Assembly: GCA_018069525.1 (NCBI GenBank)
Contig: JAGPUQ010000024.1
Location: 13,748-77,747 of the forward strand
Length of the DNA: 64,000 bases
Source: Porticoccaceae bacterium
GTDB taxonomy: Bacteria; Pseudomonadota; Gammaproteobacteria; Pseudomonadales; Porticoccaceae
Direction: 5' to 3'
Shown: positions 37,159 through 64,000 of the stretch, one piece after another
Numbering within the stretch: position 1 is the stretch's first letter
Layout of the letters: each line of letters begins with the position of its first letter
Position numbers and translations under genes: made by a program
The notes under the pieces: generated by a model
The model's database searches: none
What the model was told of the DNA's origin: nothing
The model's input: only the letters and a program-made list of their open reading frames with translations

Positions 37159-37162
37159 TGGT

Positions 37163-37218: not shown

Positions 37219-37229
37219 TTATCAACACG

Positions 37230-38268: not shown

Positions 38269-38333
38269 TTTGATGTTTATTTTTGACAAAACAAATCACA
38301 AAACAAGCGGCCGAATAAAATCGGGGAGTACTT

Positions 38334-38846
38334 ATGCATCCCCTACGTAAACGGCGGCTGTTGCTGGTGGTATTTTTAGTGGTGGTGGCTTCCGCGGCGG
38401 TGGGTTTAGTTCTTTATGCGCTAAAAGAAAACATCAGTTTTTTTTATACACCCAGCGCAGTCGCTAACGGTGAAGCACCCCACGGTCCGATAATCCGGGT
38501 CGGTGGTATGGTGGTCGCTAATAGCGTTGAGCGTAACCCTAAGGCTTTAGATGTTAGCTTTAAGGTGAGCGATGGCGCGAATGCCGTATTGATTACTTAC
38601 GCCGGTATTCTGCCGGATATGTTTGCCGAAAATGAAGCGGCGGTGGCGGTGGGTCGTCTGCGCGAAGATGGCGTGTTGGTCGCTGACGAAGTACTGGCCA
38701 AGCACGATGAAAAATATACCCCGCCGGAAGTTGCCGATGCGATGTCGAAAGCCTACGAGGCTCAACAAAAACAAAAAGCGGCATCTGGAAAGTTAGAATT
38801 GGAAAAATCAATTTCTGAAAAAACCGAGAGTGCGATTCAACCATGA
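38334..38846 (+). CDS. ccmE: heme chaperone CcmE
   Basis: N-terminal anchor and the heme-binding His context AKHDEKYTPPEV. Confidence 0.9.
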   Translation: MHPLRKRRLLLVVFLVVVASAAVGLVLYALKENISFFYTPSAVANGEAPHGPIIRVGGMVVANSVERNPKALDVSFKVSDGANAVLITYAGILPDMFAENEAAVAVGRLREDGVLVADEVLAKHDEKYTPPEVADAMSKAYEAQQKQKAASGKLELEKSISEKTESAIQP

Positions 38847-40894
38847 CAGCAGAGTTTGGTCATTTCGCATTAATTTTGGCACTGTGCCTGGCCTTCCTGC
38901 TGGCCCTGTTGCCGCTGCTGGGTAGCGCGCGGGGTAATGTCCTGTGGATGTCGACAGCGCGACCGTTGGCGTTGGGACAGTTCGTGTTTACCGCCATCAG
39001 TTTCGCGTGTCTGGTGTCGGTATTTTTGGGCGATGATTTTTCAGTTAAGTACGTGGCGAATAATTCCCACACCTTATTACCGGATCGCTATAAAGTTAGC
39101 GCGGTGTGGGGTGCTCACGAAGGTTCTCTATTACTGTGGGTGCTTATTCTCTCGGGCTGGACCCTTGCCGTCGCGACGTTCAGCCGTTCTCTACCACTGG
39201 TGTTGCTGGCACGAGTGCTGGCGGTTATGGGGATGATTGGTGTCGGCTTTTATTTGTTCGTGTTGCTTACTTCCAACCCCTTTGAGCGCGCGTTGCCGTT
39301 CTCGGTTGTTGAAGGCGGGGATCTCAATCCCCTGCTGCAGGACATCGGTTTAATTATTCATCCACCTTTGTTGTACATGGGCTATGTGGGCTTTTCGGTG
39401 GGCTTTGCGTTTGCTATCGCCGCCTTGCTGGGTGGCAAACTCGACGCCGCATGGGCGCGCTGGACTCGCCCCTGGATCAACACAGCGTGGGCTTTTCTTA
39501 CCGTTGGTATTGCCCTGGGTAGCTGGTGGGCCTACTACGAATTAGGTTGGGGTGGTTGGTGGTTTTGGGATCCGGTGGAAAATGCATCGTTTATGCCCTG
39601 GCTGGTAGGTACGGCCTTAGTACATTCCTTAGCCGCGACCGAAAAGCGGGGCGTGTTTCGCAGCTGGACATTGTTGTTGGCGATTTTGGCTTTTTCTCTG
39701 AGTTTACTCGGTACGTTTTTAGTACGCTCCGGGGTGCTGACCTCGGTGCATGCCTTTGCGTCTGACCCCACTCGGGGAATTTTTATTCTTGGTTTTCTCG
39801 CAGTGGTGATTGGTGGTTCGCTGCTGCTCTACGCATTGCGTAGTCCGACTTTGAAAAACGCGGTGAGCTACGGGTGGCGTTCGCGAGAAATGTTTTTGCT
39901 CGCCAATAACGCACTGTTGGTAGTGATTGCGACGGTAATTTTATTGGGCACGCTGTACCCCTTATTAGCGGATGTCATGGACTGGGGCACCGTGTCGGTG
40001 GGGCCACCGTATTTCAATCTGTTTTTTGCACCCGTTACTTTAATGCTCGCTCTATTGATGGGCATCGCCGTGTGGTTGCAGTGGAAAGATACCTCGATGG
40101 TTCGCTTGCGCAGTGCCGTGGGTCTGCCGGCCATACTGGCTTTGGCAATGGCGGTACTCGTGCCGGCGTATTTGGGTCTTGGCGAAAAAGGATTCGACGC
40201 CCAGAATTGGCAGTGGAGTGCAATGCTCGCAGTCGGCATGGCGACCTGGGTAGTGGCGATGACGGTGCGCGATGTTTGGCATAAGTCGTCTTCGTCGCAG
40301 GGTCGAAAATACGGTTTGCAAAAACTGCGGGCCAGTTACTGGGGCATGGTGTGTGCACACATTGGTGTGGCCGTGGCAATTGCCGGTGTGGGCATTACCA
40401 CCAGTTACAGCGAGCAACGCGATGTACGCCTGGCACCGGGTGAACATATTCAAGTGGGTGCCTATGAGTTTGTATTTGACGGCGTCAGGAATACTGAGGG
40501 CCCCAATTATCGTGCGCAAACCGGAACGGTGAAGGTAAATCGAAACGGTCACCTGGTAGCAACGCTATACCCGGAAAAACGCCGTTACCTTGCCAGTAAT
40601 CAGGTGATGACCGAAGCCGCTATTGACGGAGGTTTGTTACGGGATATATATGTCGCGCTGGGCGAAGCGCTTACTGACGGAGATGGCCGTGATGGCGGTG
40701 GAGCCTGGGCTTTACGCCTGTATGTGAAACCACTGGTGCGTTGGATATGGTTGGGTGCGCTAATGATTGCCTGCGGTGGTTTATTGGCCGCTGTGGATAA
40801 ACGCTATCGTCGTGTGGTGCCCGGCAGCGCAGTGGCAGCTAAGCCAGCAGATGCAGTTGCTCCGATTCCAACGACCGATGCGGTGAAGGTTTAG
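38843..40894 (+). CDS. ccmF: cytochrome c heme lyase subunit CcmF
   Basis: 683 aa with the WWD motif GWGGWWFWDPVENASFMPW. Confidence 0.95.
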   Translation: MTAEFGHFALILALCLAFLLALLPLLGSARGNVLWMSTARPLALGQFVFTAISFACLVSVFLGDDFSVKYVANNSHTLLPDRYKVSAVWGAHEGSLLLWVLILSGWTLAVATFSRSLPLVLLARVLAVMGMIGVGFYLFVLLTSNPFERALPFSVVEGGDLNPLLQDIGLIIHPPLLYMGYVGFSVGFAFAIAALLGGKLDAAWARWTRPWINTAWAFLTVGIALGSWWAYYELGWGGWWFWDPVENASFMPWLVGTALVHSLAATEKRGVFRSWTLLLAILAFSLSLLGTFLVRSGVLTSVHAFASDPTRGIFILGFLAVVIGGSLLLYALRSPTLKNAVSYGWRSREMFLLANNALLVVIATVILLGTLYPLLADVMDWGTVSVGPPYFNLFFAPVTLMLALLMGIAVWLQWKDTSMVRLRSAVGLPAILALAMAVLVPAYLGLGEKGFDAQNWQWSAMLAVGMATWVVAMTVRDVWHKSSSSQGRKYGLQKLRASYWGMVCAHIGVAVAIAGVGITTSYSEQRDVRLAPGEHIQVGAYEFVFDGVRNTEGPNYRAQTGTVKVNRNGHLVATLYPEKRRYLASNQVMTEAAIDGGLLRDIYVALGEALTDGDGRDGGGAWALRLYVKPLVRWIWLGALMIACGGLLAAVDKRYRRVVPGSAVAAKPADAVAPIPTTDAVKV

Positions 40895-40895
40895 T

Positions 40896-41450
40896 ATGGA
40901 ACGCCTTAAATTATTTATACCGCTGTTGATTTTTATATTACTAGCGGTGGCTTTATATTTCGGTTTGGATCGCGACCCCAGCGCAATGCCTTCGGCATTA
41001 ATCGATAAATCCGTGCCGGCTTTTACGCTGCCCAGTTTGGCGGATGAAGAAACACCCGTTACAGAAACATTCCTTACAGAAAAACTGTTTCAGGGCGAGG
41101 CGGCACTATTAAATGTGTGGGCAACCTGGTGCGTGTCCTGTCGTATGGAACACCGCTATTTAATGGATCTTGCCAAACTGGGTGTGCCGATTGTCGGGTT
41201 GAATTACAAAGATGAGCGCGGCGCCGCACAGCGGTGGCTGGTCGAGCTGGGTGATCCCTACCGGGAAGTGATTTTTGATGCCGAGGGTAGCCTCGGCCTT
41301 GACCTGGGTGTCTTCGGCGCACCGGAAACTTATGTGGTCGATGGGCAAGGCATGATTCGCTACAAGTATGTTGGTGTCGTGGATGAGCGAGTCTGGCAGC
41401 AAAAAATCGCTCCGGTGTTTCACGGCTTACAGGAGTCACCCACTCCTTGA
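40896..41450 (+). CDS. ccmG: thiol:disulfide oxidoreductase DsbE/CcmG
   Basis: Thioredoxin fold with WATWCVSC and GVFGAPETY. Confidence 0.9.
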   Translation: MERLKLFIPLLIFILLAVALYFGLDRDPSAMPSALIDKSVPAFTLPSLADEETPVTETFLTEKLFQGEAALLNVWATWCVSCRMEHRYLMDLAKLGVPIVGLNYKDERGAAQRWLVELGDPYREVIFDAEGSLGLDLGVFGAPETYVVDGQGMIRYKYVGVVDERVWQQKIAPVFHGLQESPTP

Positions 41451-41995
41451 AACGAATACTATTGCCATTGGTTTTTGTTGGCGCGTACTTGTTCAGCTTT
41501 TCATTGACGAGCTTCGCCGCTATTGAGGCAGAAGACTTTAGCTCCGAGGAGTTACGACTGCGCTATCAGACTTTGGTGGATGAAACCCGTTGTCCTAAGT
41601 GTCAAAATCAAAATTTGGCGGGTTCTGATTCGCCGATCTCCGCAGATTTGCGCGGACAAATTCGTCGCTTGCTGCACGAGGGTTCGAGCGATCAGGAAAT
41701 TGCCGATTATCTGGTGGCCCGCTATGGCGATTACGTGCTGTATCGGCCGCGCTGGCAATCCTCTACTTACGTGTTGTGGCTTGGTCCTATTATCTTATTA
41801 CTGCTCGCGGCTGCGGTGGTATTTACCGTAGTGCGCCGTCGTCGCGACGATGCGGTAGGTGAGGGTGATATCGATAAAAAAAATGTACTTAATGCAGCGG
41901 AGCAAGCCGCACTTGATCAGGTGTTAGATCATTCTCCGATAAGCCATTCACCGATAAGCAATGACCGAATAAATAATGAACGGAGCGCGTCCTGA
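41447..41995 (+). CDS. ccmH: cytochrome c maturation protein CcmH
   Basis: RCPKCQNQNL (LRCxxC) motif. The TTG start overlaps the ccmG stop. The C-terminal tail is repeat-derived (HSPISHSPISNDRINNER). Confidence 0.85.
   Translation: MKRILLPLVFVGAYLFSFSLTSFAAIEAEDFSSEELRLRYQTLVDETRCPKCQNQNLAGSDSPISADLRGQIRRLLHEGSSDQEIADYLVARYGDYVLYRPRWQSSTYVLWLGPIILLLLAAAVVFTVVRRRRDDAVGEGDIDKKNVLNAAEQAALDQVLDHSPISHSPISNDRINNERSAS
41930..41989 (+). repeat. 15-bp x4 degenerate tandem repeat forming the last 20 codons of ccmH
   Basis: cattctccgataagc / cattcaccgataagc / aatgaccgaataaat / aatgaacggagcgcg. Confidence 0.75.
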
Positions 41996-43215
41996 TGGTG
42001 TGGCTGGGTTTTGCTGCGATGTTACTTGCCGCTTTGGGTTTTCTCGGCGCAGTGTTTTTTAATAAAAATCTAGATCATCCGGATGATCTAGATTCCGCTG
42101 AAGTCGTCAGGCAATCCAATATTTCCAGTTTTCGAAATAGACAGACCGAGCTGGATGCGCAGTTAGCCAGTGGCGACATAGACAATCTCCAGTATCAAGG
42201 TCTGTTGGTCGAGGCGCAGCGCAGTCTGCTCGATGATGTGGCTGTGGTGGCGTCGAACAATGCTTCCATAAGTGGTCGCTGGTTGTTAACAAGTTGTGGG
42301 GTGTTGGTGATCGCGCTGGCGTCGGTTTTGTATTACTACCTGGGTGCCGCTGCGGACGTGGAGATTCGTCGAGGTTTGGAACAGGTAAGCGATGGCCCTC
42401 AGCCTGCGCTTACCGAGCAAATTCGTGCACGACTTAAGCAGCGGCCGGACAATTTTTTTTATTGGGCTTTATTGGCACGTTTTGATCATCAGGACGGAAA
42501 ATTAGCCGACGCACTTCAGTCCTATCAGCGGGCTTTGATGTTGAGTCCGGAAGACAATACCATTCGTTCAGAATATGCACAGGTACTGTTTATCGCTGCG
42601 GGTAGTGTGGTCACCGAAGCAGTGTCTGCCCAGGTGCAGCAGGTTCTGGCTCGGGATATTAACGATTCCTCAGCACTGGGGCTGCGCGGTATTGGTTTTT
42701 TTGCCGCTGGAAATTATCGTGCGGCACTGGCAGATTGGCAGCATGCCTTACAGAGCTTGCCGCCGCGCTCCGAAGCCGCTGGTGCTATGCGGTCGGGTAT
42801 TGCTGCGGCTCAAGCCCGGCTGGGGGAGAGTGGCGTCGGCAGCGTCGGCGTTCGTGCAAGAGTTGCGCTTAGCGAAGACTTGGCCACAATACTCGAGTCC
42901 GCCCCGGAAACCCTGGTGTTTATTTATGTGCAGGAGTGGCAAGCTATGCCGATGCCGATGATGGCCCGTCGGGTCACGGTTGCCGATTTGCCCTTGGAAA
43001 TCGAATTCAGTAACGACCAGGCTTTAATGCCAGGCCGGGATTTTTCAACAGTGTCCAAGTTTGAAGTCGTCGCCCGGGTTTCCCATGCGGGTACTCCGCT
43101 ACCCGCGTCCGGGGATTATGAGGGGCGACATGGGCCGATAGAGTTGCAAGGTAAGACTGACGCGCCGGGAGAAACTCAGACCTTCTCCTTAATGATTGAT
43201 CGTCGGTTGCCATAG
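41995..43215 (+). CDS. ccmI: c-type cytochrome biogenesis protein CcmI (TPR)
   Basis: N-terminal TM segments followed by TPR-like repeats (YWALLARFDHQDGKLADALQSYQRALMLSPED). It holds the last position of the ccm operon, and its ATG overlaps the ccmH stop. Confidence 0.8.
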   Translation: MVWLGFAAMLLAALGFLGAVFFNKNLDHPDDLDSAEVVRQSNISSFRNRQTELDAQLASGDIDNLQYQGLLVEAQRSLLDDVAVVASNNASISGRWLLTSCGVLVIALASVLYYYLGAAADVEIRRGLEQVSDGPQPALTEQIRARLKQRPDNFFYWALLARFDHQDGKLADALQSYQRALMLSPEDNTIRSEYAQVLFIAAGSVVTEAVSAQVQQVLARDINDSSALGLRGIGFFAAGNYRAALADWQHALQSLPPRSEAAGAMRSGIAAAQARLGESGVGSVGVRARVALSEDLATILESAPETLVFIYVQEWQAMPMPMMARRVTVADLPLEIEFSNDQALMPGRDFSTVSKFEVVARVSHAGTPLPASGDYEGRHGPIELQGKTDAPGETQTFSLMIDRRLP

Positions 43216-45982: not shown

Positions 45983-47146
45983 ATGGATTTTGCGTTGTTA
46001 GACGAACAGAAAATGATTTACCAGTACGGACAAAATATCGCTAAGGACTTTGACCGCAAATACTGGATGGATTGTGCCGACGCCTCTAGATTCCCCGAGG
46101 AGATGTATCAGCGGGTCGCCGACGACGGTTTTGTTGGCTTGATGGTGCCCGAGGCTTATGGCGGATCAGGTTTAGGGATGTTTGAAATGGGCTTGTTTAA
46201 CGAGGGTTTGTCGGAGCAGGGCACACCACTGCTGAGCCTGGTGATCGGTGCCACTATGTGTCTGGGTGCCATTAGTAAGCACGGTACAGAAGAGCAAAAA
46301 CAGCAGTATTTGCCGCCTTCCTGCCGGGGCGAAACACGTTTTTGCTTTGGTATTACCGAAGCCGATGCGGGTACCAATACCATTCGCATTAACACCATTG
46401 CCGCACCCCAGCCGAATGGTCGCTTCAAACTCAATGGTAGCAAAACCTATATTACCGATGCTAAAGAGTCGGACTATATGCTGCTGGTAACGCGCACGAC
46501 TCCGCACACGGAGGTAAAACGCAAAACCGAAGGCTTTACTTTGTTTATCGTCGATACCAAGGCAAAAGGTATCGAAATGCAGCCTATCGACATAAGTGTG
46601 CCAATTCCCGAAATGCAATATCAGATCTTTTTTGACGATGTGGACCTGGGACCCGAGCAGGTATTGGGTGAAGTTGATAAGGGTTTTGAGGTCTTATTCG
46701 ACTCCTTAAACCCCGAGCGTATTCTGGTGGGTTCTATCTGTGTGGGCCTGGGTCGCTACGCATTGGCAAGAGCTGTCGAGTACGCCAGCGAACGCTCGGT
46801 GTTTAAAGGGCCCATAGGAGCTTATCAGGCACTGCAACATCCTTTGGCCCGGGCTAAAACTGAAATTGAAGCGGCGTCGTTATTAACCCATAAAGCGGCG
46901 AGCTTGTTTGACCAGGGCGAGCCCTGTGGCGATGAGGCCAATATGGCGAAATTCGCCGCCTCGGAAGCCTGTGTGAACGCCGTGGATGCCGCGCTCCAGT
47001 GTTTTGGTGGCAATGGGTATACCAAGGAATATGGCATTTTTGACTTATACCCCGTCGCGCGTTTAATGAAGACAATACCGTTCAATAATGAAATGGTGTT
47101 GAATTATATCGGTGAGCGAGTGCTGGGTTTACCGCGATCTTACTAG
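45983..47146 (+). CDS. acyl-CoA dehydrogenase, array member 1
   Basis: 387 aa. ITE.DAGTN, ...KTYITDA..., and a C-terminal ..NEMVLNYIGE (catalytic Glu context). Confidence 0.85.
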   Translation: MDFALLDEQKMIYQYGQNIAKDFDRKYWMDCADASRFPEEMYQRVADDGFVGLMVPEAYGGSGLGMFEMGLFNEGLSEQGTPLLSLVIGATMCLGAISKHGTEEQKQQYLPPSCRGETRFCFGITEADAGTNTIRINTIAAPQPNGRFKLNGSKTYITDAKESDYMLLVTRTTPHTEVKRKTEGFTLFIVDTKAKGIEMQPIDISVPIPEMQYQIFFDDVDLGPEQVLGEVDKGFEVLFDSLNPERILVGSICVGLGRYALARAVEYASERSVFKGPIGAYQALQHPLARAKTEIEAASLLTHKAASLFDQGEPCGDEANMAKFAASEACVNAVDAALQCFGGNGYTKEYGIFDLYPVARLMKTIPFNNEMVLNYIGERVLGLPRSY

Positions 47147-47162
47147 CCACCGGCGCTACTAG
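47131..47162 (+). repeat. 16-bp x2 repeat spanning the ACAD-1 stop
   Basis: accgcgatcttactag / ccaccggcgctactag. Confidence 0.55.
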
Positions 47163-47213
47163 TTTTGCATTCGATTTGCTGGCTATAAACGCGAATTAAT
47201 TTGGAGGAAGAGT

Positions 47214-48377
47214 ATGGACTTTTTACTTTCTGACGAACAAAAAATGATTTACGACTATGGCGAGAGTCTGGCGAAAACCTATGACCGCGCCTACTGGATG
47301 GAACACGCCGAGCGTCGTGCTTTTCCGGTCGATATGTACAAGCAGATAGCCGCCGACGGATTTGTTGGAACCATGGTGCCGGAGCAGTACGGTGGTTCTG
47401 GTCTCGGTATGGTAGAGATGGCGCTGTTTAAAGAAGGGCTCTCCAATCAGGGTGTTCCGCTGTTGAGTTTGGTGGTGGGCGCCTGTATGTCGATGTCGGT
47501 TATTGGTAAATATGGCAGCGAAGAACAGAAACAAAACTATTTGCCCGCCGCCTGTAGCGGCGATATTCGCTTTTGTTTTGCCATTACCGAGCCGGACGCA
47601 GGAACCAATACCATTAAAGCGTCGACCATCGCAAAGCCCACCGCTGACGGTCGTTTTAAATTGACCGGACGTAAAACTTATATCACCGATGCTCTGGAAT
47701 CCGATTACGCTTTAGTGGTAACGCGCACCAAGCCACATACCGAAGTTGCGCGAAAAACCGATGGTTTTACGTTGTTTATTGTCGATACCAAATCGAAAGG
47801 TATTGAGATGCATCCGATCCCGGTAAGTATTCCCTTGCCGGAACTACAGTACCAGGTGTTTTTCGACGATGTGGATCTCGGCCCGGAAAACGTACTCGGT
47901 GAAGTCGATAAAGGTTTCGATATTCTGTTTGATTGCCTGAACCCAGAACGTATTTTGGTGGGTTCGATCAGCTGTGGTATCGGCCGCTTCGCAATGGATA
48001 AAGCCGTGGCCTATGCCAGCGAGCGCACCGTGTTTAAGGGCCCCATCGGGGCCTATCAGGCCTTGCAGCATCCACTGGCCAAAGCTAAAACTGAAATTGA
48101 GCTGGCCTCATTAATGACCCGCAAAGCCGCCTGGATGTACGATCAGAAAATGGAGTGTGGCGGTGAAGCCAGTATGGCGAAATATGCTGCTGCTGAAGCC
48201 TCTATCCACGCGGTGGATGCGTCGTTGCAATGTTTTGGGGGTAACGGTTACACCAAAGAGTATGGCATTTTTGATCTTTATCCGCTGGCGCGTTTGTTTA
48301 AAACTGCGCCGCTGAATAGCGAAATGGTATTGAATTACATCGGCGAGAAAGTACTGGGTTTACCGCGCTCCTATTAG
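47214..48377 (+). CDS. acyl-CoA dehydrogenase, array member 2
   Basis: 387 aa, collinear with member 1 without gaps. Roughly 70% identical by eye. Confidence 0.85.
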   Translation: MDFLLSDEQKMIYDYGESLAKTYDRAYWMEHAERRAFPVDMYKQIAADGFVGTMVPEQYGGSGLGMVEMALFKEGLSNQGVPLLSLVVGACMSMSVIGKYGSEEQKQNYLPAACSGDIRFCFAITEPDAGTNTIKASTIAKPTADGRFKLTGRKTYITDALESDYALVVTRTKPHTEVARKTDGFTLFIVDTKSKGIEMHPIPVSIPLPELQYQVFFDDVDLGPENVLGEVDKGFDILFDCLNPERILVGSISCGIGRFAMDKAVAYASERTVFKGPIGAYQALQHPLAKAKTEIELASLMTRKAAWMYDQKMECGGEASMAKYAAAEASIHAVDASLQCFGGNGYTKEYGIFDLYPLARLFKTAPLNSEMVLNYIGEKVLGLPRSY

Positions 48378-48437
48378 CCGGGCACTTATTAGCCGAGAAC
48401 TTATTAGCTGGGCACTGATTAAGCGCACAGTTATTAA
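48363..48437 (+). repeat. 15-bp x5 in-frame tandem repeat: the last 4 codons + stop of ACAD-2 reiterated
   Basis: ccgcgctcctatTAG / ccgggcacttatTAG / ccgagaacttatTAG / ctgggcactgatTAA / gcgcacagttatTAA. Confidence 0.9.
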
Positions 48438-48472
48438 ATTTTTGTAAAAAATATTATTACTGGAAAAAGCAC

Positions 48473-49636
48473 ATGAATTTCAATTTATCCGACGAACAAA
48501 AAATGATTTACGAGTACGGCCAAAGTCTGGCAAAAGATTTTGATCGTAAATACTGGAGCGAATGCGCCGAGCGCAAGGCCTTTCCTACCGAGATGTATCA
48601 GAAAGTCGCCGACGATGGTTTTGTCGGCATTATGGTGCCGGAAGCCTACGGTGGCTCGGGGCTGGGTATGTTCGAGATGGTGTTGTTCCAGGAAGGTTTG
48701 TCCAATATGGGTATTCCGCTGCTGAGCCTGGTGGTCGGGGCGACGATGTCCCTGTCCCCGATTGGAGATCACGGCACCGAGGAGCAAAAGCAAAAATACC
48801 TACCCGCTGGCTGTACTGGAGATCTGCGGTTTTGTTTCGCGATTACCGAACCGGATGCTGGTACCAATACCATGAAAACCTCCACCATGATTAAAGCAAC
48901 GGGTAATGGTGGCTATCGGCTCAATGGTCGAAAAACATTTATTACCGATGCCAAAGAGTCGGATTACATGTTGGTGGTGACGCGAAACAAGAGTCTCGAT
49001 GAGGTCGAGCGAAAGACCGACGGCTTCACCATTGTGATTGTTGATACCAAAGCCAAGGGTGTCGAAATGCATCCCATCGATGTCAGTATCCCAATGCCGG
49101 AATGTCAGTATCAGGTGTTTTTTGACGACGTTGAGATTGGTTCGGAAAATATTCTTGGTGAGGTCGGACGCGGTTTTGATATTTTGTTTGAATCCTTAAA
49201 CCCGGAGCGAATTATTCTCGCTGCGGTATGTACCGGTATTGGTCGCTACGCCATGGATCAAGCGGTGGCATATGCTAACGAGCGCGTGGTGTTTAAGGGC
49301 CCCATCGGGGCGTATCAAGCTTTGCAGCATCCACTGGCAAAAGGTAAAACCGAAATTGAATTGGCTTCGCTGATGACTCGCAAGGCGGCCTGGTTGTTTG
49401 ATCAAAAATTGCCTTGTGCTGCGGAAGCTAATATGGCGAAGTACGCGGGTGCGGAGGCCTCGATGCACGCCATCGACGCGTCTTTACAATGCTTTGGCGG
49501 TAACGGCTTTACCAAGGAGTACGGTATTTTTGATCTTTATCCCATGGCACGACTGTTGAAAACCGCGCCGCTGAATAGTGAAATGGTGCTGAATTATATT
49601 GGCGAGCATGTGATGGGTTTGCCGCGGTCTTACTAA
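48473..49636 (+). CDS. acyl-CoA dehydrogenase, array member 3
   Basis: 387 aa, collinear with members 1 and 2. Confidence 0.85.
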   Translation: MNFNLSDEQKMIYEYGQSLAKDFDRKYWSECAERKAFPTEMYQKVADDGFVGIMVPEAYGGSGLGMFEMVLFQEGLSNMGIPLLSLVVGATMSLSPIGDHGTEEQKQKYLPAGCTGDLRFCFAITEPDAGTNTMKTSTMIKATGNGGYRLNGRKTFITDAKESDYMLVVTRNKSLDEVERKTDGFTIVIVDTKAKGVEMHPIDVSIPMPECQYQVFFDDVEIGSENILGEVGRGFDILFESLNPERIILAAVCTGIGRYAMDQAVAYANERVVFKGPIGAYQALQHPLAKGKTEIELASLMTRKAAWLFDQKLPCAAEANMAKYAGAEASMHAIDASLQCFGGNGFTKEYGIFDLYPMARLLKTAPLNSEMVLNYIGEHVMGLPRSY

Positions 49637-51674: not shown

Positions 51675-52478
51675 TTAACCCTGGTCTGGGTCGACATCGC
51701 TACCTTCGTCAACATCATCTTGATTATCTTCGCTGGATTTTTGTTTTGCGCGGTACACCCAGCGACCGAAAAATACGCCGACCTCAAACAGTAACCACAT
51801 GGGTATTGCCAGCATGGCCTGGGAGATCACATCGGGTGGTGTTAGTAGCATGGCGAGAACAAAACAGCCGACGACGATATAAGGCCGTTTGTCAGTGAGG
51901 CCCCTGGGGGTGAGTACACCGGCCCAAATTAGAATGACGGTGGCAATGGGAATTTCAAAGGCGATGCCAAAGGCAAAAAATAATTTAAGTACGAAGTCCA
52001 GATAATAGGAAATGTCGGTCATCACTGCGACGCTTTCCGGGCCGACCTGGGTAAAAAACCCGAACACCGCAGGGAAAACGACGTAATAGGCAAACGCCAT
52101 TCCAGAGTAAAACAAAGCGACGCTGGAGATAAAAAGAGGCAGCACGATATGGCGTTCTTTTTGGTAAAGCCCCGGCGCCACAAAGGCCCATACTTGATAG
52201 AGAATAAACGGCATGGCTGCAAAGAGCGCCAGTATCAGGGTTAATTTAAACGGGGTCAGGAAGGGGGAGGCCACCTGAGTGGCGATCATGGTAGAGCCTT
52301 CCGGCAAGTACACTCTTAGGGGTTCGGAGACAAAAGTATAAAGCTCGTTGGCAAAGGGAAACATGCACAGGAATAACAGCGCGATCACCATCACCATACG
52401 CAGCAGGCGGTCGCGCAATTCGATCAGGTGATCGGCCAGGGCCATATTGTCGGAGGTGTTGGCGCTAGTCTCGCTCAC
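51675..52478 (-). CDS. tatC: twin-arginine translocase subunit TatC
   Basis: Polytopic protein with HLIELRDRLL near the N-terminus. It holds the canonical position after tatB. Confidence 0.9.
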   Translation of the reverse strand: MSETSANTSDNMALADHLIELRDRLLRMVMVIALLFLCMFPFANELYTFVSEPLRVYLPEGSTMIATQVASPFLTPFKLTLILALFAAMPFILYQVWAFVAPGLYQKERHIVLPLFISSVALFYSGMAFAYYVVFPAVFGFFTQVGPESVAVMTDISYYLDFVLKLFFAFGIAFEIPIATVILIWAGVLTPRGLTDKRPYIVVGCFVLAMLLTPPDVISQAMLAIPMWLLFEVGVFFGRWVYRAKQKSSEDNQDDVDEGSDVDPDQG

Positions 52479-52978
52479 TGCTCGGCCTTGCTGTGGTCTA
52501 TATCGGTGTTGTCAGCTTCGCTGCTCAGTTTGTTTGGCTTCTTGTCAGGAAGGTCGTCGGGCAAGTTGTCAGGAGCGTCGTGAGGAAAGCCGTCGGGTAT
52601 CTGATCAGGAAAGTCGTCGGGGAAGTCATCGTCATCGATAAAATCTATATCTTCAGCGTCCTGATCGAGGAGCGATGACTGATCACCGTCAGAGTCAGCG
52701 CCTTTAGCGGACTTGTTTTGCCCTTGATTGAACTGTTCCTCAACTTCCCTGCGCTCTTTGTCGAGTTGCTCAAGCAATAAGCTGTTGTGCACCTCGCGTT
52801 TGATTTCGTCGATGCCGAATTCCCGTTCCATTTCCTGACGGGCATCGCCGACGGTACGGCGCAGCTTGCCCGTCCAGTAGCCGATAAATCGAGCGGCTTC
52901 TGGTAGGCGCTTGGGCCCAATCACAATCAATGCGATCAGGCCAATCAACATTAATTCGGCGAAGCCGATATCGAACAC
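52475..52978 (-). CDS. tatB: twin-arginine translocase subunit TatB
   Basis: MFDIGFAELMLIGLIALIVIGPKRLPE. The C-terminal half is built of PD-rich repeats. Confidence 0.9.
   Translation of the reverse strand: MFDIGFAELMLIGLIALIVIGPKRLPEAARFIGYWTGKLRRTVGDARQEMEREFGIDEIKREVHNSLLLEQLDKERREVEEQFNQGQNKSAKGADSDGDQSSLLDQDAEDIDFIDDDDFPDDFPDQIPDGFPHDAPDNLPDDLPDKKPNKLSSEADNTDIDHSKAEQ
52544..52639 (-). repeat. In-frame 12/24-bp tandem repeats encoding the acidic PDxF/L tail of TatB
   Basis: gtcaggaaggtcgtcgggcaagtt / gtcaggagcgtcgtgaggaaagcc / gtcgggtatctgatcaggaaagtc / gtcggggaagtcatcgtcatcgat (plus-strand reading). Confidence 0.75.
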
Positions 52979-53033
52979 GGGAAGCTCTCTAGCTGATTAG
53001 ATAGGGGGAGTGGGGATGCTTAGGAGGTGAGGC

Positions 53034-53297
53034 CTAAACCTTGGTTTCTTCTTTACTGCTTTCTTCAGCGCTTTCTTCAGCGCTTGCTTCTGCACTTTGC
53101 TGGGTCATATCAGCGGCGTCTTCGCCATCTTCTACCTGTTTTTGCTCGTCGTCTTTGTTGCCCATGGCGTCTTTGAAGCCCTTGATTGCGCCACCGACAT
53201 CGCCACCGATATTTTTAAGCCGCTTGGTGCCGAAAATCAGCAATACGATTGCCAAAATAATCAGCAGTTGCCACATACTAATGCCACCTAAGCCCAT
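53034..53297 (-). CDS. tatA: twin-arginine translocase subunit TatA
   Basis: [27 protein letters not shown]. The C-terminal tail [12 protein letters not shown] comes from 12-bp x3 repeats at 53058-53093. Confidence 0.9.
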
Positions 53298-59464: not shown

Positions 59465-60268
59465 CTACTTTAGATGCCCCAGATGTTTGCCGACAATGCT
59501 CAACGTCGGTTTAAACAGGCGAGGAGTGCTAGCGACGATATGACCGGTATCGAGATAACTGTCGCCGCCCTGAAAGTCGCTGATCATGCCGCCAGCTTCA
59601 CGTACTAAGAGTACGCCAGCAGCGATATCCCAGGGCTGTAAGTACATTTCCCAAAAGGCGTCGTAGCGTCCGGCGGCGACATAGGCCAGGTCCAGAGAGG
59701 CCGCACCCATGCGACGAATTCCAGATGAATCATCGGCCAGATCCTTTACGCAGGTCAAATAAGGATCGATATTGTCGAAAGGTTTACTGCTAAACGGAAT
59801 GCCCGTGGCAAATAAAGCTCCGGCCCTGGCGAGCCGCCCCGATACCCGAATGCGCTGGCCATTTAAAAAAGCGCCCTTGCCGCGGCTAGCGGTAAATTCT
59901 TCGCGCTTGATGGGGTCGTAAACCACGGCGTGTTCCAGGCGGCCCTTATAACGGAAGGCAATGGACACCGCATAGTGGGGAATGCCGCGGATAAAATTAG
60001 TGGTGCCGTCCAGGGGATCAATCAGCCACTCGCTGTCCGTGTCCCGACCTGCCTGTGCGCCGAACTCTTCGCTGACAATACTGTGGTCGGGATAGGCTTT
60101 GCGCAGATGCTCGATAATAATGCTTTCGGCATCCCGATCGACTTCGCTGACGTAGTCGTGTTGACCTTTGGCTTCTACTTTAATCCGGTCGAGTCGATCG
60201 GAGGCACGCACGATTTGCACACCAGCGGCGCGAGCGGCTTGCAGTGCAATGGATAGCATCGGTTCCAT
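59465..60268 (-). CDS. suhB: inositol monophosphatase family protein SuhB
   Basis: MEPMLSIALQAARAAG, WLIDPLDGTTNF, WDIAAG. Confidence 0.9.
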   Translation of the reverse strand: MEPMLSIALQAARAAGVQIVRASDRLDRIKVEAKGQHDYVSEVDRDAESIIIEHLRKAYPDHSIVSEEFGAQAGRDTDSEWLIDPLDGTTNFIRGIPHYAVSIAFRYKGRLEHAVVYDPIKREEFTASRGKGAFLNGQRIRVSGRLARAGALFATGIPFSSKPFDNIDPYLTCVKDLADDSSGIRRMGAASLDLAYVAAGRYDAFWEMYLQPWDIAAGVLLVREAGGMISDFQGGDSYLDTGHIVASTPRLFKPTLSIVGKHLGHLK

Positions 60269-60455
60269 AGAATATAGAGATCATGTCGCAATAGAAGGCC
60301 GCGCATCATACCAGAATGGTTTATTGAGAGAGTGGTTTTTACTGATCCTAGAGCCAGTTTCAGTGGTGGCGCGGTGCGTTGCTCACCTGAGATATGCTGT
60401 CAGCATCGGGCAAATATGGGTTCGAGACGTAATTGGCTTAATGACTTGAGCTTTT

Positions 60456-60530
60456 GGGTTCCGGTTAAGGCGCTAAGCTAAAATGGCCCGGTTAAGGCGC
60501 TAGCATGGCCCGGTTAAGGCGCTAGCATGG
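60456..60530. repeat. 22-bp iterons upstream of the mini-peptide gene (two perfect copies + one degenerate)
   Basis: atggcccggttaaggcgctagc occurs at 60483-60504 and identically at 60505-60526. A degenerate copy gggttccggttaaggcgctaagc is at 60456-60478. A 6-1-6 palindrome ATGCTG-T-CAGCAT is at 60394-60406. Confidence 0.9.
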
Positions 60531-60659
60531 ATTGCCCCTCGGCATAATCGGCGCTTGTATACTATTTGCGGGCGTTTTACAATGAGGTTTCGCAACATTT
60601 TGTTGCCTTGGCTTACACGTGCAACCTTATCATATTCCATATGCACAACGGTGAAAGAC

Positions 60660-60878
60660 ATGAAGACTGAGAACGATGTGAAGACAAATATGAAGATAGA
60701 CCTGAAGACCGAGCAGGCTTCGGTACCAGAAGATAATGCTCGCCGGGCTTTCCTGAAACATAGCGCCTATGCGGCCTACACCACGCCAGCTATCCTGTCG
60801 TTGGTGGTTTCGGGTCGCGCGGCTGCGACCTCGCATTTTAATTGCCCGCCTAAGAGTCAAAACCCCGGCTGTCCGTAG
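60660..60878 (+). CDS. 72-aa pre-peptide: Tat-type signal peptide + 16-residue two-Cys C-terminal tail (candidate modified/exported peptide)
   Basis: MKTENDVKTNMKIDLKTEQASVPEDNARRAFLKHSAYAAYTTPAILSLVVSGRAAATSHFNCPPKSQNPGCP. I trimmed the track ORF 60555..60878 to ATG 60660; in-frame alternatives are GTG 60678 and ATG 60690. It lies immediately upstream of the PqqD-like/kinase gene. Confidence 0.5.
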   Translation: MKTENDVKTNMKIDLKTEQASVPEDNARRAFLKHSAYAAYTTPAILSLVVSGRAAATSHFNCPPKSQNPGCP

Positions 60879-60916
60879 CCAAACCCCCGACTGTGTTTGA
60901 CAACTGGATTTGATCG

Positions 60917-60943
60917 GAAGGTTCTCGGTCTCTGCGAACCTTC
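60917..60943 (+). terminator. 8-bp stem-loop after the peptide gene (possible attenuator/processing site)
   Basis: GAAGGTTC-N11-GAACCTTC. No U-tract follows. Confidence 0.3.
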
Positions 60944-61089
60944 AGCGTATTAAAAGATTAGAGATCAAAACAGAGCGAATTAAGGGACTAGGCGTTGTGA
61001 AGAGAAGTAAAGTTTCCCGCTGATCGACACAGTTCTGTATTCGTTGACTTGAGACAGGGCAGCATTAAAGACACTATACTCTGCCCACC

Positions 61090-62322
61090 TTGAAACTCTC
61101 AAAACCTCGCGCTGATATCAATTTCCTACCGTTTTTAGACGGTGCAGTGCTATTCCACGTTGCGACACAAAGGCTGTGGGTCTTGAATAGCTCGCAGACT
61201 TTTATTTGGTGTTGGTTAGAAGAGTGCACAGGTATCGAGCAACTCGCTCACAAGCTCAGCGATACCTTTGATATTAGTCTCAAGCAGGCTAAATCAGATA
61301 CGCAGTTAGCATTTGATAGTCTGGCTGGAAACGGTCTGCTAGAAGGAGGGAGCCTTCTAGCGCCCAGCCCCGAGCCAGCGGGGCAAGATTTACTTGCGCC
61401 GCTGGGCCATACCGTTAAACCAACGCTTAACGAAACCGCATCTAGTCGGCTTCGTCTGAGCATCCTCAACACCTATATTGTGATAACGATAGAGGATCCG
61501 GTTTTACTGGGAGAAATGTTAAGGATATACGCGCCGTTTCTCGATGAGGGCGTTGTTCCTGATGCGTCGTCGGCTGAGCTATCATTAATCGTCCGCGCTG
61601 TATCGCCGGGAGCTACGGGGTTAAATCATTTCGATATTCTTATTGATCATCAAAGCCTGGGTTTAGACATTAGCAGAGAAAGGCTTGTCCCTTACCTGGT
61701 GACTGCGATTTTCCAAAAGGTTTCCAGGCAGCTGGGAGGCCAGGTAGCGCTGCATAGCGCAGCACTTACCCGTGCTGAGACAACCTTGATTTTCCCCGCC
61801 AATTCGGGCGCTGGAAAATCCACTCTTTGTGCTGTGCTGATGTCGAAAGGGTGGGGCTGCTTAAGCGATGAACTGGCTATTCTTAATCCCGTGGAAGCTT
61901 TGGTTACACCACTACCCTTACCGATGAGTATAAAATCTGGATCCATCGATCCCTTACGTCGGTATTACCCAGAGCTAGTAAGCTACCCTTTGCACCATAG
62001 GGCTGACGGCAAGCAGGTGAGATACTTGCCGATTAAGACTCTCGACGCAGTCAATAAACGGGATTCTTACGCTCTTTCAGCGATTGTTTTGCCAACATAT
62101 TCACCGGGTGAAAACACAAAATTATTATCTGTGAGTAAAATAACAGCCCTGGAAAAAATAACGGAAACGGGTTCGTCTGAGCGCCTGCTGACAGTAGAGG
62201 ATATCCGCAGTCTTATTAGTTTGATTGAAAAAATACCCTGTTATCAATTGGTGTATGGGTCAACTGAAGAAGCTGCAGATGTCCTGGACGCGTTTGTGGA
62301 TGGGACGTATCAGGTCAGTTGA
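61090..62322 (+). CDS. PqqD-like (RRE) domain fused to an HPr-kinase-C-like P-loop domain
   Basis: The N-terminus FLPFLDGAVLFHVATQRLWVLNSSQTFIWCWLEE..IEQLAHKLSDTFDISLKQAKSDTQLAFDSLAGNGLLE matches the PqqD pattern. The C-terminal half has LHSAALTRAETTLIFPANSGAGKSTLCAVLMSKGWGCLSDELAIL, as in HprK-related kinases. TTG start. Confidence 0.6.
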   Translation: MKLSKPRADINFLPFLDGAVLFHVATQRLWVLNSSQTFIWCWLEECTGIEQLAHKLSDTFDISLKQAKSDTQLAFDSLAGNGLLEGGSLLAPSPEPAGQDLLAPLGHTVKPTLNETASSRLRLSILNTYIVITIEDPVLLGEMLRIYAPFLDEGVVPDASSAELSLIVRAVSPGATGLNHFDILIDHQSLGLDISRERLVPYLVTAIFQKVSRQLGGQVALHSAALTRAETTLIFPANSGAGKSTLCAVLMSKGWGCLSDELAILNPVEALVTPLPLPMSIKSGSIDPLRRYYPELVSYPLHHRADGKQVRYLPIKTLDAVNKRDSYALSAIVLPTYSPGENTKLLSVSKITALEKITETGSSERLLTVEDIRSLISLIEKIPCYQLVYGSTEEAADVLDAFVDGTYQVS

Positions 62323-62377
62323 ATCTGAAGTCTTTCTACATGCGCCCTAGCTATAAATTTTTTCCGGATTTAGCGAG

Positions 62378-63589
62378 GTGCCCGTGAGATACGACTGGTT
62401 ATCTTTTGCTGGATACTCTAACGTGCTCCCCATGAACAATAGCTACGTCTTGCTCGGTAATTTTTTAGCGCCGGTAAAAAACGGTGAAGTGCTCAATACC
62501 TTAAAAAAAGCGATTACTGAGGAGTCGATCAACTGGGAGAGCTTAGTGCTTCAGGCTAATACCCAGATGTGTACGCCGCTTCTCTTTGCCCGTCTTAAAC
62601 AGGATGACCTGCTGCAATACCTGCCAGAAAATCTGCAGGAATATTTGCGAGTGATCTACGACAGTAATTTGATGCGAAACGAGGCATTGAAAACTGGATT
62701 AGAACCACTCTTGCAAATGTTTGCGGATGAAAATATCGATTCGATACTACTCAAGGGCGCGGCAACCTTTGTGGACGAACTTTATACCGCACCGGGATCG
62801 CGATATATGGGGGATTTGGATATTCTCATACCCGAGGAAAAAATATCCCTCGCCCGCCAATTCTTGATCACTTCGGGCTTTGACGAAATTCACGACCCGT
62901 ATATGGAGTTTTCTGGTCAACCCACTGACGTCCGTCACCACCAGATTCAACGGTATCTGAAACCCGGGACGCCCGTCGCGATTGAGCTGCATTTTAAGCT
63001 TGCCTACGGCCAGGCTGGACGAGTTGTAGAGACTGAGGCGGCCTGGGAGAACGCTGAAAATGTTGTTTTTCGAGGTATAAAGACCAAGGTTTTATCGCCG
63101 ACCTATCGCGTGTTGCATAATGTTATTCACGGATTACTTCCGCATTGTGAATATATAAAGGGAGAGGTATCCCTGCTGCAATTGGCTGAGTTTTCGGCGC
63201 TTGCGGCGCGCTACGGGGAAGAAATTGACGGGCTTGTACCCAAAGTTTTGTGCGCCCGACAAAATCTTAGTAAAGAGTTACGTGGTTACACCGGTCTTGC
63301 TCGAAAATTGATGTTTTTGGAGGCCACCGACTTAGGGAGCGAGGAAATACCGAAATGGCATTTAGACCGCATTGTTAGCGTTGGGGACAGCGGAGCGCAG
63401 CTTGACAATATGGATAAATCTTTTTCTTTAAAGCTTCGACTGTTCACGTACAAAATATATTATTTTATGAAGCTGCCTGGCTGGTTTTGGGATAATGTCA
63501 GTTACGCTGAGGGCGAAGGGGCTTTTTGGAGTCGAATCCGACTGTTGCTCGCTAGATTGTTTAGCTTCAGAAGTTGGAAAAAAATCTGA
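62378..63589 (+). CDS. PF14907-type 'uncharacterised nucleotidyltransferase' family protein
   Basis: ILLKGAATFVDELYTAPGSRYMGDLDILIPEEKISLARQFLITSGF matches the LKG...R...DlDiL signature I associate with NTP_transf_5. The start is GTG 62378 or ATG 62432. Confidence 0.55.
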   Translation: MPVRYDWLSFAGYSNVLPMNNSYVLLGNFLAPVKNGEVLNTLKKAITEESINWESLVLQANTQMCTPLLFARLKQDDLLQYLPENLQEYLRVIYDSNLMRNEALKTGLEPLLQMFADENIDSILLKGAATFVDELYTAPGSRYMGDLDILIPEEKISLARQFLITSGFDEIHDPYMEFSGQPTDVRHHQIQRYLKPGTPVAIELHFKLAYGQAGRVVETEAAWENAENVVFRGIKTKVLSPTYRVLHNVIHGLLPHCEYIKGEVSLLQLAEFSALAARYGEEIDGLVPKVLCARQNLSKELRGYTGLARKLMFLEATDLGSEEIPKWHLDRIVSVGDSGAQLDNMDKSFSLKLRLFTYKIYYFMKLPGWFWDNVSYAEGEGAFWSRIRLLLARLFSFRSWKKI

Positions 63590-63609
63590 GGGTTGATCAT
63601 AGGTAATGA

Positions 63610-64000
63610 TCAAATAGCGATTTGACGACATCTTTCGCTTAACCAATCTTCCATCAAGAATTTCAGGCCCTGGTAAACCGCTCCGGTGCGGATTCTGTCG
63701 CGCTCCAATATTAAATACAGTTGTTTGCTTTGATGTCCGCTACTACTGGCTTTGGTGATCCAGGCGGTGCCCACCGGTTTGTCTTTTGTGCCGCCATCGG
63801 GACCAGCGATGCCGGTAAAGCTGAGTGCGAGATCGGCGTTGAAACGTGTTAATGCCCCCAGGGCCATTTGCTCTGCAGTGGCAGTGTTAAATGGGCCGTC
63901 TAGCTCTAAATCGCTGGCGGAGACATCGAGGAAGTTGGTTTTAACCGCATTGGAGTAGGACACCACGCCACCCAGAAAATACTCGGAAGACCCCGGGCTG
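63610..64000 (-). CDS. CinA-family C-terminal (PncC nicotinamide-nucleotide amidohydrolase) domain, 3' part (start beyond window end)
   Basis: The frame stays open to position 64000. My upstream translation is SPGSSEYFLGGVVSYSNAVK, followed by LSFTGIAGPDGG...PVGTAWI. Confidence 0.75.
   Translation of the reverse strand, partial: SPGSSEYFLGGVVSYSNAVKTNFLDVSASDLELDGPFNTATAEQMALGALTRFNADLALSFTGIAGPDGGTKDKPVGTAWITKASSSGHQSKQLYLILERDRIRTGAVYQGLKFLMEDWLSERCRQIAI

Follow-up and report, generated by a model that had tools for sequence, protein, structure and literature searches.

A Twin-Arginine-Like Precursor Peptide beside an RRE-Kinase Fusion and a PF14907 Nucleotidyltransferase: A Candidate Peptide-Decorating Cassette of Gram-Negative Bacteria

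Background

What might a bacterium make with a kinase, a nucleotidyltransferase and a nameless small gene set side by side? The question is posed by a three-gene cassette in a 64-kb stretch of DNA from a Porticoccaceae metagenome-assembled genome (MAG), here called the window. [quoted passage not shown] The original prediction for this DNA had placed three co-directional genes on the plus strand between suhB and cinA, and both the ORF list and the family matches agree (Table 1). It had further seen in them a minimal, functionally undescribed RRE-kinase and NTase system acting on a short peptide. Domains, folds and gene linkage support such a system, whereas the word "undescribed" has to be tempered by the existence of a relative in the Bacillota.

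We propose that the cassette probably encodes a RiPP-type pathway in minimal form, akin to the Bacillota relative and adapted to the diderm cell, whose product would be a peptide that is phosphate-decorated and secreted. A wider claim, on which we lean slightly towards doubt, is that it represents a widespread, unannotated Gram-negative RiPP class, in which the leader would itself be a twin-arginine translocation (Tat) signal, the RRE would act as a Tat "proofreading" chaperone masking the hydrophobic core of that signal until decoration, and the products would be phosphoglycopeptides linked to exopolysaccharide (EPS) or biofilm.

The relative in question is the pathway of the linear polyphosphorylated peptides (LPPs) of Bacillota, encoded by lppA-K-B-S-D-N (Popov et al., Nat Commun, May 2026; PMC13381572). 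The LPP precursor has the leader motif YxxPxVLxHQxIxFETxxS, of which the opening part belongs to the RRE-recognition motif [Y/W]xxPx[L/V/I/F/A] of lasso and LPP leaders, and LppB is a discrete RRE protein (PMC13381572). LppK, which is HprK-like, has been shown experimentally to be a peptide kinase that places several phosphates onto Ser3 of the core AQSNWK; LppS, a signal peptidase I of the SipW type (TIGR02228), removes the leader, and LppD is an MsbA-like exporter (PMC13381572). The clusters are embedded in capsule loci and are stated by the authors to be restricted to Bacillota, and the supplementary domain table lists PqqD, NTP_transf_5 and TIGR04352/TIGR04249/TIGR04355 (PMC13381572).

Results and discussion

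A family of small genes accompanies the kinase gene

The 72-aa product has an identical counterpart in NCBI, MBQ0799754.1, listed as a "hypothetical protein" of a Porticoccaceae MAG. In the public protein database, 322 family members of 46-131 aa were gathered by profile search; all of them lack a Pfam domain and are named only "hypothetical protein". A hidden Markov model (HMM) of the leader, built from 17 leaders, was run over 669 kb of fetched loci (numbered with the prefix L below): every match with E<1e-8 adjoins a kinase gene, and nowhere in the window was there a second match. A match lies at most 2.8 kb from the fusion gene, on either side and either strand, in 29 of the 36 non-redundant loci that encode a fused RRE-kinase. 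Three further fused loci have divergent Tat-like candidates and two loci are truncated, giving a co-occurrence of 29-32 in 36, a count that is weakened by the close relationship of many metagenomic loci to one another, since such counts are not independent. The check for a conserved adjacent short ORF that the original prediction had proposed thus came out in its favour.

All of the five closest loci have a homologous small gene beside the fusion, upstream of it in L001, L003 and L004 and downstream in L002, and at several loci there are two precursor genes in tandem that differ from each other. In three Porticoccaceae genomes, whose fusion proteins share 93-96% identity, the 56 codons of the leader show three changes, all of them synonymous, and the latter half of the core varies (PPKSQNPGCP, PEPGQNPNCD, PEPSQNPDC). 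Judged from these sequences, the small ORF is genuine and conserved as a gene, not a chance reading frame. Diverse cores occur at L029, L031-L034, L036, L038, L020 and L015, and include (H/R)G-repeats with an acidic end, C-x10-C loops, cationic poly-Lys/Arg tails and Gly-rich types. Precursor-like ORFs with K-R in place of R-R (KREFMKKFG.YA..AP.GMYLLM...) stand beside unfused kinases in L014, L016, L059 and L069, from Campylobacterota and related contigs.

A leader built like a twin-arginine signal peptide

The window peptide consists of an N-region rich in Lys, Glu and Asp, a Tat-like leader reading ...DNA-RRAFLK-HSAYAAYTTPAILSLVVSG-RAAA, and a 16-aa core. Family features were counted in the best 123 of the 322 members, some of them over 122. 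The motif RRxF[LM] is shared by all 123, with the arginine pair at median residue 19 and R or K at +5 in 85 of 122. It is followed by an uncharged stretch (h-region) of 14-21 residues in the family (median 16; grand average of hydropathy (GRAVY) 1.45), which in the window peptide comprises 19 residues with a GRAVY of 0.85 and leads into G-R-A-A-A. Where cleavage is predicted, 115 of 122 members have an AxA motif. Embedded in the h-region is a second conserved element, of which T42 and P43 are invariant in the precursor alignment: [YFW]xxPx[LIVMFA] occurs in 119 of 123 members, and [ST]P lies inside the h-region in 121 of 123.

The cores are 13-51 aa long (median 23). Their first Ser or Thr stands at +1 to +3 in 120 of 122, and one core sub-family begins AQSWN or AKSWN, close to the LppA acceptor site. 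The number of Cys residues is even in 88 of the 91 cores that contain any; in the window peptide a C-x8-C loop could be closed by a disulfide between Cys62 and Cys71. By its motifs, then, the leader resembles a twin-arginine signal peptide in its n/h/c layout and its predicted signal peptidase I site, and the paired Cys residues of the cores would point to an oxidising, extracytoplasmic destination.

An RRE fused to a PEPCK/HprK-like kinase

The N-terminal part of the fusion protein, in whose first 90 or so residues a PqqD-type RRE had been predicted, bears this out: residues 19-84 are recognised by Pfam PqqD (E 5.5e-8; 33.5 bits, cutoff 23.4), and the AlphaFold2 model, computed from an alignment of 23 homologues (pLDDT 87.1, pTM 0.85), displays the winged-helix layout of an RRE, made of three strands (11-15, 18-23, 28-32) and three helices (34-42, 49-60, 64-80). 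By sequence profile, the nearest counterparts are the lasso B1 proteins TbiB1 (E 1.3e-4), TfuB1 and PbaB1.

The kinase part is recognised by TIGR04352 (HprK_rel_A) over residues 210-401 (E 3.4e-34), at 118.2 bits and thus under the cutoff of 200; the same residues also match TIGR04249, and there are weak matches to lasso PqqD chaperones and to ScmC, PF27840 "ScmC" being the precomputed family on the homologues of the fusion. The profiles TIGR04353 (13.5 bits, E 0.1, cutoff 35) and TIGR04355 (20.4 bits) score low, and Pfam Hpr_kinase_C has no match to the fusion at E<=1. By fold, the whole model matches ATP-dependent phosphoenolpyruvate carboxykinases (PEPCKs; E ~1e-7, TMq ~0.41), and HprK/P is itself a member of the PEPCK fold class. 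In 23 homologues, fused and unfused alike, residues H222, G242, K243, T245 and D260 never vary. Of the original call of an HPr-kinase C-domain, the SGAGKST P-loop, the TIGR04352 likeness and the PEPCK/HprK-like fold therefore stand, while the Pfam family by that name does not match; likewise, among the HMM checks it had proposed, PqqD and NTP_transf_5 gave matches and the remaining profiles either none or scores as just described. The link it drew to the HprK-related cassettes of TIGRFAMs holds for the gene set and loosens at the profile level: because the fusion scores under the cutoffs of both TIGR04352 and TIGR04353, it is, as far as its sequence tells, a member of a sister group of that system and not of the system itself.

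The fused architecture is common, with 737 cluster representatives at E<=1e-30 in an exhaustive profile search; a word-index search had given eight full-length matches, and the notion of the fusion as a rarity was dropped. Most of the top 150 fused relatives are about 400 aa long and align from end to end, and several relatives of 460-480 aa have an insert between RRE and kinase. In four proteins (P0093, P0099, P0139, P0143) a glycosyltransferase (PF11397 "GlcNAc" or Glycos_transf_1) is joined to PqqD and kinase; such triple fusions would tie the RRE-kinase to peptide glycosylation. As to the start of the gene, the NCBI call for a 96% homologue (391 aa; L001 10001) begins 19 codons downstream and loses RRE strand 1. 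The upstream residues INFLPFLDG are conserved in homologues, which supports the longer TTG ORF at 61090; no Shine-Dalgarno sequence is evident there.

The nucleotidyltransferase

The assignment of the third protein to PF14907 in the original prediction is confirmed by a match to NTP_transf_5 (E 6.3e-39) and by the presence of the LKG and MGDLDIL motifs. Residues K126, G127, D146, D148, H205 and H251 are invariant in 40 homologues. The 403-aa ORF that had been reported does exist; the true start is more likely the ATG at 62432 than the codon at 62378, because the NCBI call for a 96% homologue is of 385 aa and the model falls below pLDDT 50 over residues 1-13. The model (pLDDT 91.4) has a nucleotidyltransferase core of the Pol-beta type, with fold matches to MenT1, ANT(2'')-Ia (TMt 0.74) and LnuA and a weak likeness to the ribitol-phosphate transferase FKRP. 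No solved structure matched its large helical C-terminal part, and a sequence search of the PDB with the NTase found no relative.

Genomic neighbourhoods

The PF14907 gene lies directly 3' of the kinase gene nearly everywhere. It adjoins the fusion in 26 of the 36 fused loci, the others being mostly truncated contigs. The surroundings of the cassette differ between lineages: the Porticoccaceae copies lie between suhB and cinA, and in 13 of the 36 loci, belonging to several lineages, the cassette is flanked by EPS genes. These EPS-type neighbours include Wzy_C, Wzz/GNVR-AAA_31, CpsB, Poly_export, BBP2_2/EpsL-like, Bac_transf and VpsP-like genes, and their hosts are Gammaproteobacteria MAGs, one Geopsychrobacteraceae genome and a set of metagenome contigs.

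Separately, Desulfogranum japonicum (L070) has a 38%-identical PF14907 NTase (8001-9182) and a stand-alone 91-aa PqqD protein (14001-14276). Both lie in an EPS locus with glycosyltransferases, a pyruvyl transferase, BBP2_2, Poly_export and Wzz, and there is no kinase or Tat-like precursor within 8 kb on either side.

For the content of the window, Pfam was run on 30 of the 50 ORFs that lie upstream of position 57000 and measure 180 aa or more; the 10 kb on each side of the cassette were covered by the precomputed Pfam calls in the syntenic locus L001, and about 13.8 kb of the upstream stretch also aligned to the window in the pieces compared. Neither an Asn-synthetase-like cyclase nor a B2-type peptidase was found among these 30 ORFs or in the Pfam-annotated loci L001-L004, in a screen that left out 20 large window ORFs, ORFs below 180 aa outside the L001 cover and the other fetched loci. 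The cassette has neither a peptidase nor an ABC exporter beside it, be it in the window, in L001 or in L002-L004. The statement that the window has no ABC exporter is qualified by one ABC transporter, the only one among the scanned window ORFs: CcmAB of cytochrome c maturation (35610-37158), an unrelated system.

A proposed pathway

From the observed genes, domains, folds, precursor anatomy and genomic associations we infer the following biochemical steps. 1) The leader of the 72-aa precursor would double as a twin-arginine signal peptide. 2) The RRE of the fusion would bind YxxPxI in the hydrophobic region of the signal, as its homology to lasso and LPP RREs suggests, and so hold the peptide in the cytoplasm. 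3) The fused PEPCK/HprK-like kinase would phosphorylate Ser58, possibly several times, by analogy with LppK acting on Ser3 of LppA and in keeping with the conserved Ser/Thr column. 4) The NTase would add a further group to the phosphate, probably a sugar or sugar-phosphate, if the NTase PsmN of the pseudomycoidin pathway and the glycosyltransferase triple fusions are a guide. 5) On release, the twin-arginine signal would be exposed, and the housekeeping TatABC system would export the decorated peptide. 6) Signal peptidase I (LepB) would cut after Ala56, and Cys62 and Cys71 would be oxidised to a disulfide in the periplasm.

Tat, unlike SecYEG, takes bulky or folded cargo as well as small hydrophilic unstructured peptides, and this tolerance would explain the choice of signal. 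In the same way, a route through Tat and signal peptidase I would explain why a dedicated protease and exporter are missing; the signal anatomy with its AxA site thus offers a ready explanation for an absence that the original prediction had recorded. That prediction missed the Tat-like leader, and with it the EPS association, the LPP precedent and the commonness of the fusion. In most other lineages the cassette is set within Wzy/Wzz-type EPS loci, and such surroundings, met with in two phyla, hint that the mature peptide may serve at the cell surface or in biofilm. Seen from the side of the wider, chaperone-based claim, kinase and NTase, or in some relatives the fused glycosyltransferase, would build a phospho-glycosyl group on a Ser adjoining the cleavage site; the bulky product would then pass out by way of Tat, be trimmed by the housekeeping signal peptidase and end up in the periplasm or at the surface.

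Points against the proposal and rival explanations

Several observations weigh against the proposed pathway, beginning with those on its Tat component. The Tat profiles are short models of low power: PF10518 has no match to the precursors, and TIGR01409 and formate_TAT matched 2 of 12 (E 0.11) and 5 of 12 (best E 0.006) precursors respectively; with these profiles below threshold, the Tat assignment is a matter of motif anatomy alone. The long, highly charged N-region and the acidic residue that stands just before the cleavage site in 86 of 122 members are both atypical of Tat signals, the Campylobacterota relatives have KR instead of RR, and the invariant RRxFL could instead be a contact of the RRE or the kinase. 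The same facts, together with the position of the YxxP motif inside the supposed h-region and the general knowledge that RiPP leaders often hold invariant enzyme motifs, favour a RiPP-type system that is otherwise the same, in which the Tat-like leader is a recognition element for RRE and kinase only and the peptide stays in the cytoplasm or leaves through an unlinked exporter and protease. This we regard as unlikely, if less so than the other rivals: the full n/h/c anatomy (polar-RRxFL-R/K, 14-21 uncharged residues, AxA) is kept over 123 sequences, the mostly even Cys counts of the cores suggest disulfides outside the cytoplasm, and no other exporter or protease recurs among the Pfam-annotated loci L001-L004. 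The short and only moderately hydrophobic h-region with its central Pro is, moreover, signal-like rather than anchor-like, and AxA follows it directly in 115 of 122. Both features argue against an uncleaved micro-protein, inserted into the inner membrane by Tat, whose decorated periplasmic tail would modulate the Wzy_C/Wzz/Wza machinery; so does the lack of EPS neighbours in the Porticoccaceae copies. The proximity of the cassette to Wzy_C, Wzz, CpsB, Poly_export and BBP2_2 in several lineages, and the fact that 14-21 residues could partly span a membrane, speak for such a protein, which we nevertheless judge improbable.

Other difficulties lie with the enzymes and the neighbourhoods. Besides the sub-cutoff TIGR04352 and TIGR04353 scores, the sequence similarity of the kinase to true HprK/P is marginal (E ~1). 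No EPS genes are found near the cassette in the window, L001 or L008. Furthermore, the LppN NTase was inactive in a heterologous host (PMC13381572), which makes the NTase step the weakest of the proposed mechanism. One might ask whether the two enzymes have a non-peptide substrate, for instance a polysaccharide or a sugar linked to a lipid, or regulate EPS synthesis in the manner of HprK, through phosphorylation of a protein, with a vestigial RRE and with the small Tat protein as an independent periplasmic factor. The EPS association of many relatives, and the D. japonicum locus with NTase and PqqD and neither kinase nor precursor within 8 kb, would fit such an arrangement, which we hold to be very unlikely given that the RRE is well conserved with a canonical fold in the model, that the three genes are tightly linked even where EPS genes are not near, and that the LPP kinase is experimentally a peptide kinase (PMC13381572). 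No more credit is due to the idea that the two enzymes tailor a lasso peptide or other RiPP encoded elsewhere and that the adjacent ORF is unrelated to them. It can appeal to the RRE, nearest to lasso B1 proteins by sequence, and to HprK-like kinases and NTP_transf_5 as typical lasso tailoring genes; set against it are the co-occurrence of precursor and fusion in 29-32 of 36 loci, the absence of cyclase and B2 families from the 30 scanned window ORFs and from the called genes of L001-L004, and a window core that has neither Asp or Glu at positions 7-9 nor a C-terminal Ser. The leader-guided, Tat-exported pathway stays our preferred reading.

Were it correct, phospho-peptide RiPP chemistry would reach from Bacillota to diderm bacteria, and a new logic of RiPP maturation would emerge, in which Tat and signal peptidase I replace the dedicated protease and exporter and the RRE doubles as an export-delaying chaperone. 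The proposal also supplies: 1) a concrete substrate hypothesis for the long-orphan "HprK-related kinase" cassettes of TIGRFAMs; 2) a search rule, namely RRxFL...[ST]P...AxA-x-S beside a PqqD-kinase gene, for clusters that may be overlooked when standard RiPP pipelines look for cyclases, proteases and exporters; and 3) in view of the recurrence beside polysaccharide loci in both Bacillota and Proteobacteria, a directly testable question, namely which part the peptides play in biofilm or capsule.

Features of the locus and of the window

Table 1. Coordinates of the cassette, its motifs and domains, and selected neighbouring genes (positions in the 64-kb window)
Feature	Position	Strand	Basis or remark
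Precursor ORF	60660-60878	+	72 codons, 72 aa; ATG start; GGTGA 5 nt 5' of ATG
Twin-arginine motif A-R-R-A-F-L-K, residues 27-33	60738-60758	+	RRxF[LM] invariant in precursor alignment
Y-T-T-P-A-I, residues 40-45, within h-region HSAYAAYTTPAILSLVVSG	60777-60794	+	Candidate RRE-binding motif, [Y/W]xxPx[L/V/I/F/A] lasso/LPP type
A-A-A, residues 54-56	60819-60827	+	Predicted signal peptidase I (AxA) site, leader end; motif position
Core TSHFNCPPKSQNPGCP	60828-60875	+	Candidate phospho-site Ser58 (60831-60833), second core residue
RRE-kinase fusion ORF	61090-62322	+	410 aa; TTG start
RRE (winged helix, beta3-alpha3), ~residues 10-90	61117-61359	+	AlphaFold2 model and PqqD match
Middle domain and PEPCK/HprK-like P-loop kinase, ~residues 120-405	61447-62304	+	Model and family match
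Walker A/P-loop N-S-G-A-G-K-S-T, residues 238-245	61801-61824	+	Motif
Asp260-Glu261 in SDELA	61864-61878	+	Downstream of P-loop; His222 upstream
Nucleotidyltransferase ORF	62378-63589	+	403 aa; GTG start; probable true start ATG 62432
LLKGAATF catalytic motif	62747-62770	+	
MGDLDIL catalytic motif	62807-62827	+	
suhB-like (Inositol_P)	59465-60268	-	Family match; flanks cassette
cinA	63610 onward	-	CinA family match; flanks cassette
tatA	53097-53297	-	tblastn with Pfam-annotated L001 TatA
tatB	52478-52978	-	tblastn with Pfam-annotated L001 TatB
tatC	51732-52445	-	tblastn with Pfam-annotated L001 TatC

The nearness of tatABC (51732-53297) to the cassette is probably coincidental. A gene of the OlsF family (olsF) was found upstream of the cassette in the family scan. 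The intergenic region between suhB and the precursor gene contains a 22-bp unit (CCGGTTAAGGCGCTAGCATGG-like) in three tandem copies at 60461-60530, and two copies in both related Porticoccaceae genomes; this unit could be an operator, a promoter element or mere slippage.

Scans of 60200-64000 for promoters and terminators gave no more sites than shuffled sequence, and an Rfam scan of the same interval matched no family. Three further ideas were discarded: an attenuator hairpin 3' of the precursor gene, which is not significant (z = -0.8) and is not kept in L001 or L008; recent horizontal transfer, for which the GC gap (0.477 in the cassette and 0.51 in the rest of the window) is too small as an argument; and a defence or toxin function, as no PADLOC model matched any of the three proteins.

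Elsewhere in the window, cytochrome c maturation genes (CcmA, CcmB, CcmF and CcmH by Pfam) occupy 35610-43215, and a set of three genes at 32664-35142 encodes a radical SAM protein whose C-terminal domain is DUF3641, along with a family-2 glycosyltransferase and a DUF2064 protein. Four successive short-chain dehydrogenase ORFs of 255-259 aa each lie at 15042-18529, a divergent DUF7064/DUF7065 pair at 18797-21089, and three successive 387-aa ORFs, the first of them an acyl-CoA dehydrogenase, at 45983-49636. The dehydrogenase and DUF7064/DUF7065 stretches suggest a region of lipid or hydrocarbon degradation.

Comparison with known systems

Phosphorylated lasso peptides offer the comparison from which the original prediction started. 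In paeninodin (PadeK) and pseudomycoidin (PsmK-PsmN), an HprK-like kinase and an uncharacterised NTase decorate a Ser of a ribosomal peptide, and, as in the present cassette, the RRE belongs to the lasso B1 type. The target that PsmK phosphorylates is the C-terminal Ser, and PsmN, itself uncharacterised, is needed for the addition of hexose to that phosphate (PMC6993621). The present cassette differs in having no macrolactam synthetase, B2 protease or ABC exporter, and in its core TSHFNCPPKSQNPGCP, which ends in GCP and so has no C-terminal Ser acceptor. The paeninodin analogy, which had pointed to a C-terminal Ser, accordingly does not hold: the conserved Ser/Thr stands 1-3 residues after the predicted cleavage site, like phospho-Ser3 of LppA (PMC13381572). 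The verdict that this is not a lasso cluster does hold, both by the absence of cyclase and B2 from the scanned ORFs and by positions 7-9 of the core (P, P, K), which provide no Asp or Glu for lasso ring closure.

The orphan "HPr-rel-A system" of TIGR04352, TIGR04353 (PqqD_rel_X) and PF14907 has the same gene set in the same order, and upstream in its true members (Thauera, Thalassotalea and Colwellia) there is likewise a gene whose product bears a twin-arginine-like N-terminus. The differences are of score and size: the present kinase reaches 118 bits against a cutoff of 200, compared with 343 for the Thauera kinase; the present RRE reaches 13.5 against 35 and is fused; and in the true system the product of the upstream gene measures 218-235 aa, as opposed to 46-131 aa in the present family (72 aa in the window). 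These upstream proteins (L005 8952-9659, L017 4689-5345, L022 4667-5323), which precede the PqqD-like gene (shown for L005), have an RRRLI or RRSFLKK N-terminus and a Cys...MSG(N/A) motif after the predicted cleavage site; no family was assigned in the two that were scanned (L005 and L017). Such features hint that the orphan system may decorate a Tat-exported protein rather than a peptide.

A leader that is at the same time a general-secretion signal has a precedent in the bufferins and oxazolins, RiPPs made with MNIO enzymes, where housekeeping export and signal peptidase take the place of a dedicated exporter and protease, as proposed here, and where, again as proposed here, a partner would mask the signal until modification is complete (PMC12452194). 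The Sec-type signal peptide of bufferins as a RiPP leader is called "highly unusual" in that work, which proposes a masking partner protein and does not mention Tat (PMC12452194). Their signals are thus of the Sec and not the Tat type, and their MNIO and DUF2063 enzymes produce Cys-derived heterocycles.

The parallel on the Tat side lies with the proofreading chaperones TorD, DmsD and NapD (redox enzyme maturation proteins), cytoplasmic proteins that bind the twin-arginine signal and delay export until the cargo has matured. By pure analogy, an RRE bound to the twin-arginine signal would delay export until the peptide is decorated; the folds are unrelated, the RRE being a PqqD-like winged helix, and the cargo would be a small decorated peptide instead of a cofactor enzyme. 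In the searchable literature we found nothing on HprK-related kinase, TIGR04352, TIGR04353 or PF14907 cassettes, nor on a RiPP leader of the Tat type.

The closest known system is the LPP pathway. Shared with it are: 1) a PqqD-type RRE, an HprK-like kinase and an NTP_transf_5 protein; 2) a linear precursor without a cyclase, with YxxPx[hydrophobic] in the leader; 3) the place of the acceptor, Ser3 in LPP and a conserved Ser/Thr at the same place in the present cores; 4) leader removal of the signal-peptidase-I type, predicted in the present case; and 5) a frequent location within polysaccharide loci. In contrast, the present RRE is fused to the kinase N-terminus where that of LPP is discrete, and no SipW-like LppS or MsbA-like LppD lies beside the cassette. 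The present leader, which is Tat-like, keeps of the LPP motif only the YxxPx[I/L/M] part (YTTPAI), the remainder, VLxHQxIxFETxxS, being replaced by RRxFLK...AxA. The present hosts are diderm Pseudomonadota, Desulfuromonadia and Campylobacterota, and the cores are shorter, often with Cys pairs. With its RRE not discrete, with neither LppS nor LppD and with a different leader, the cassette is not an LPP cluster in the strict sense. It appears to be a variant of RRE-guided peptide decoration by HprK-like kinase and NTase, and an undescribed Gram-negative cousin of the LPPs.

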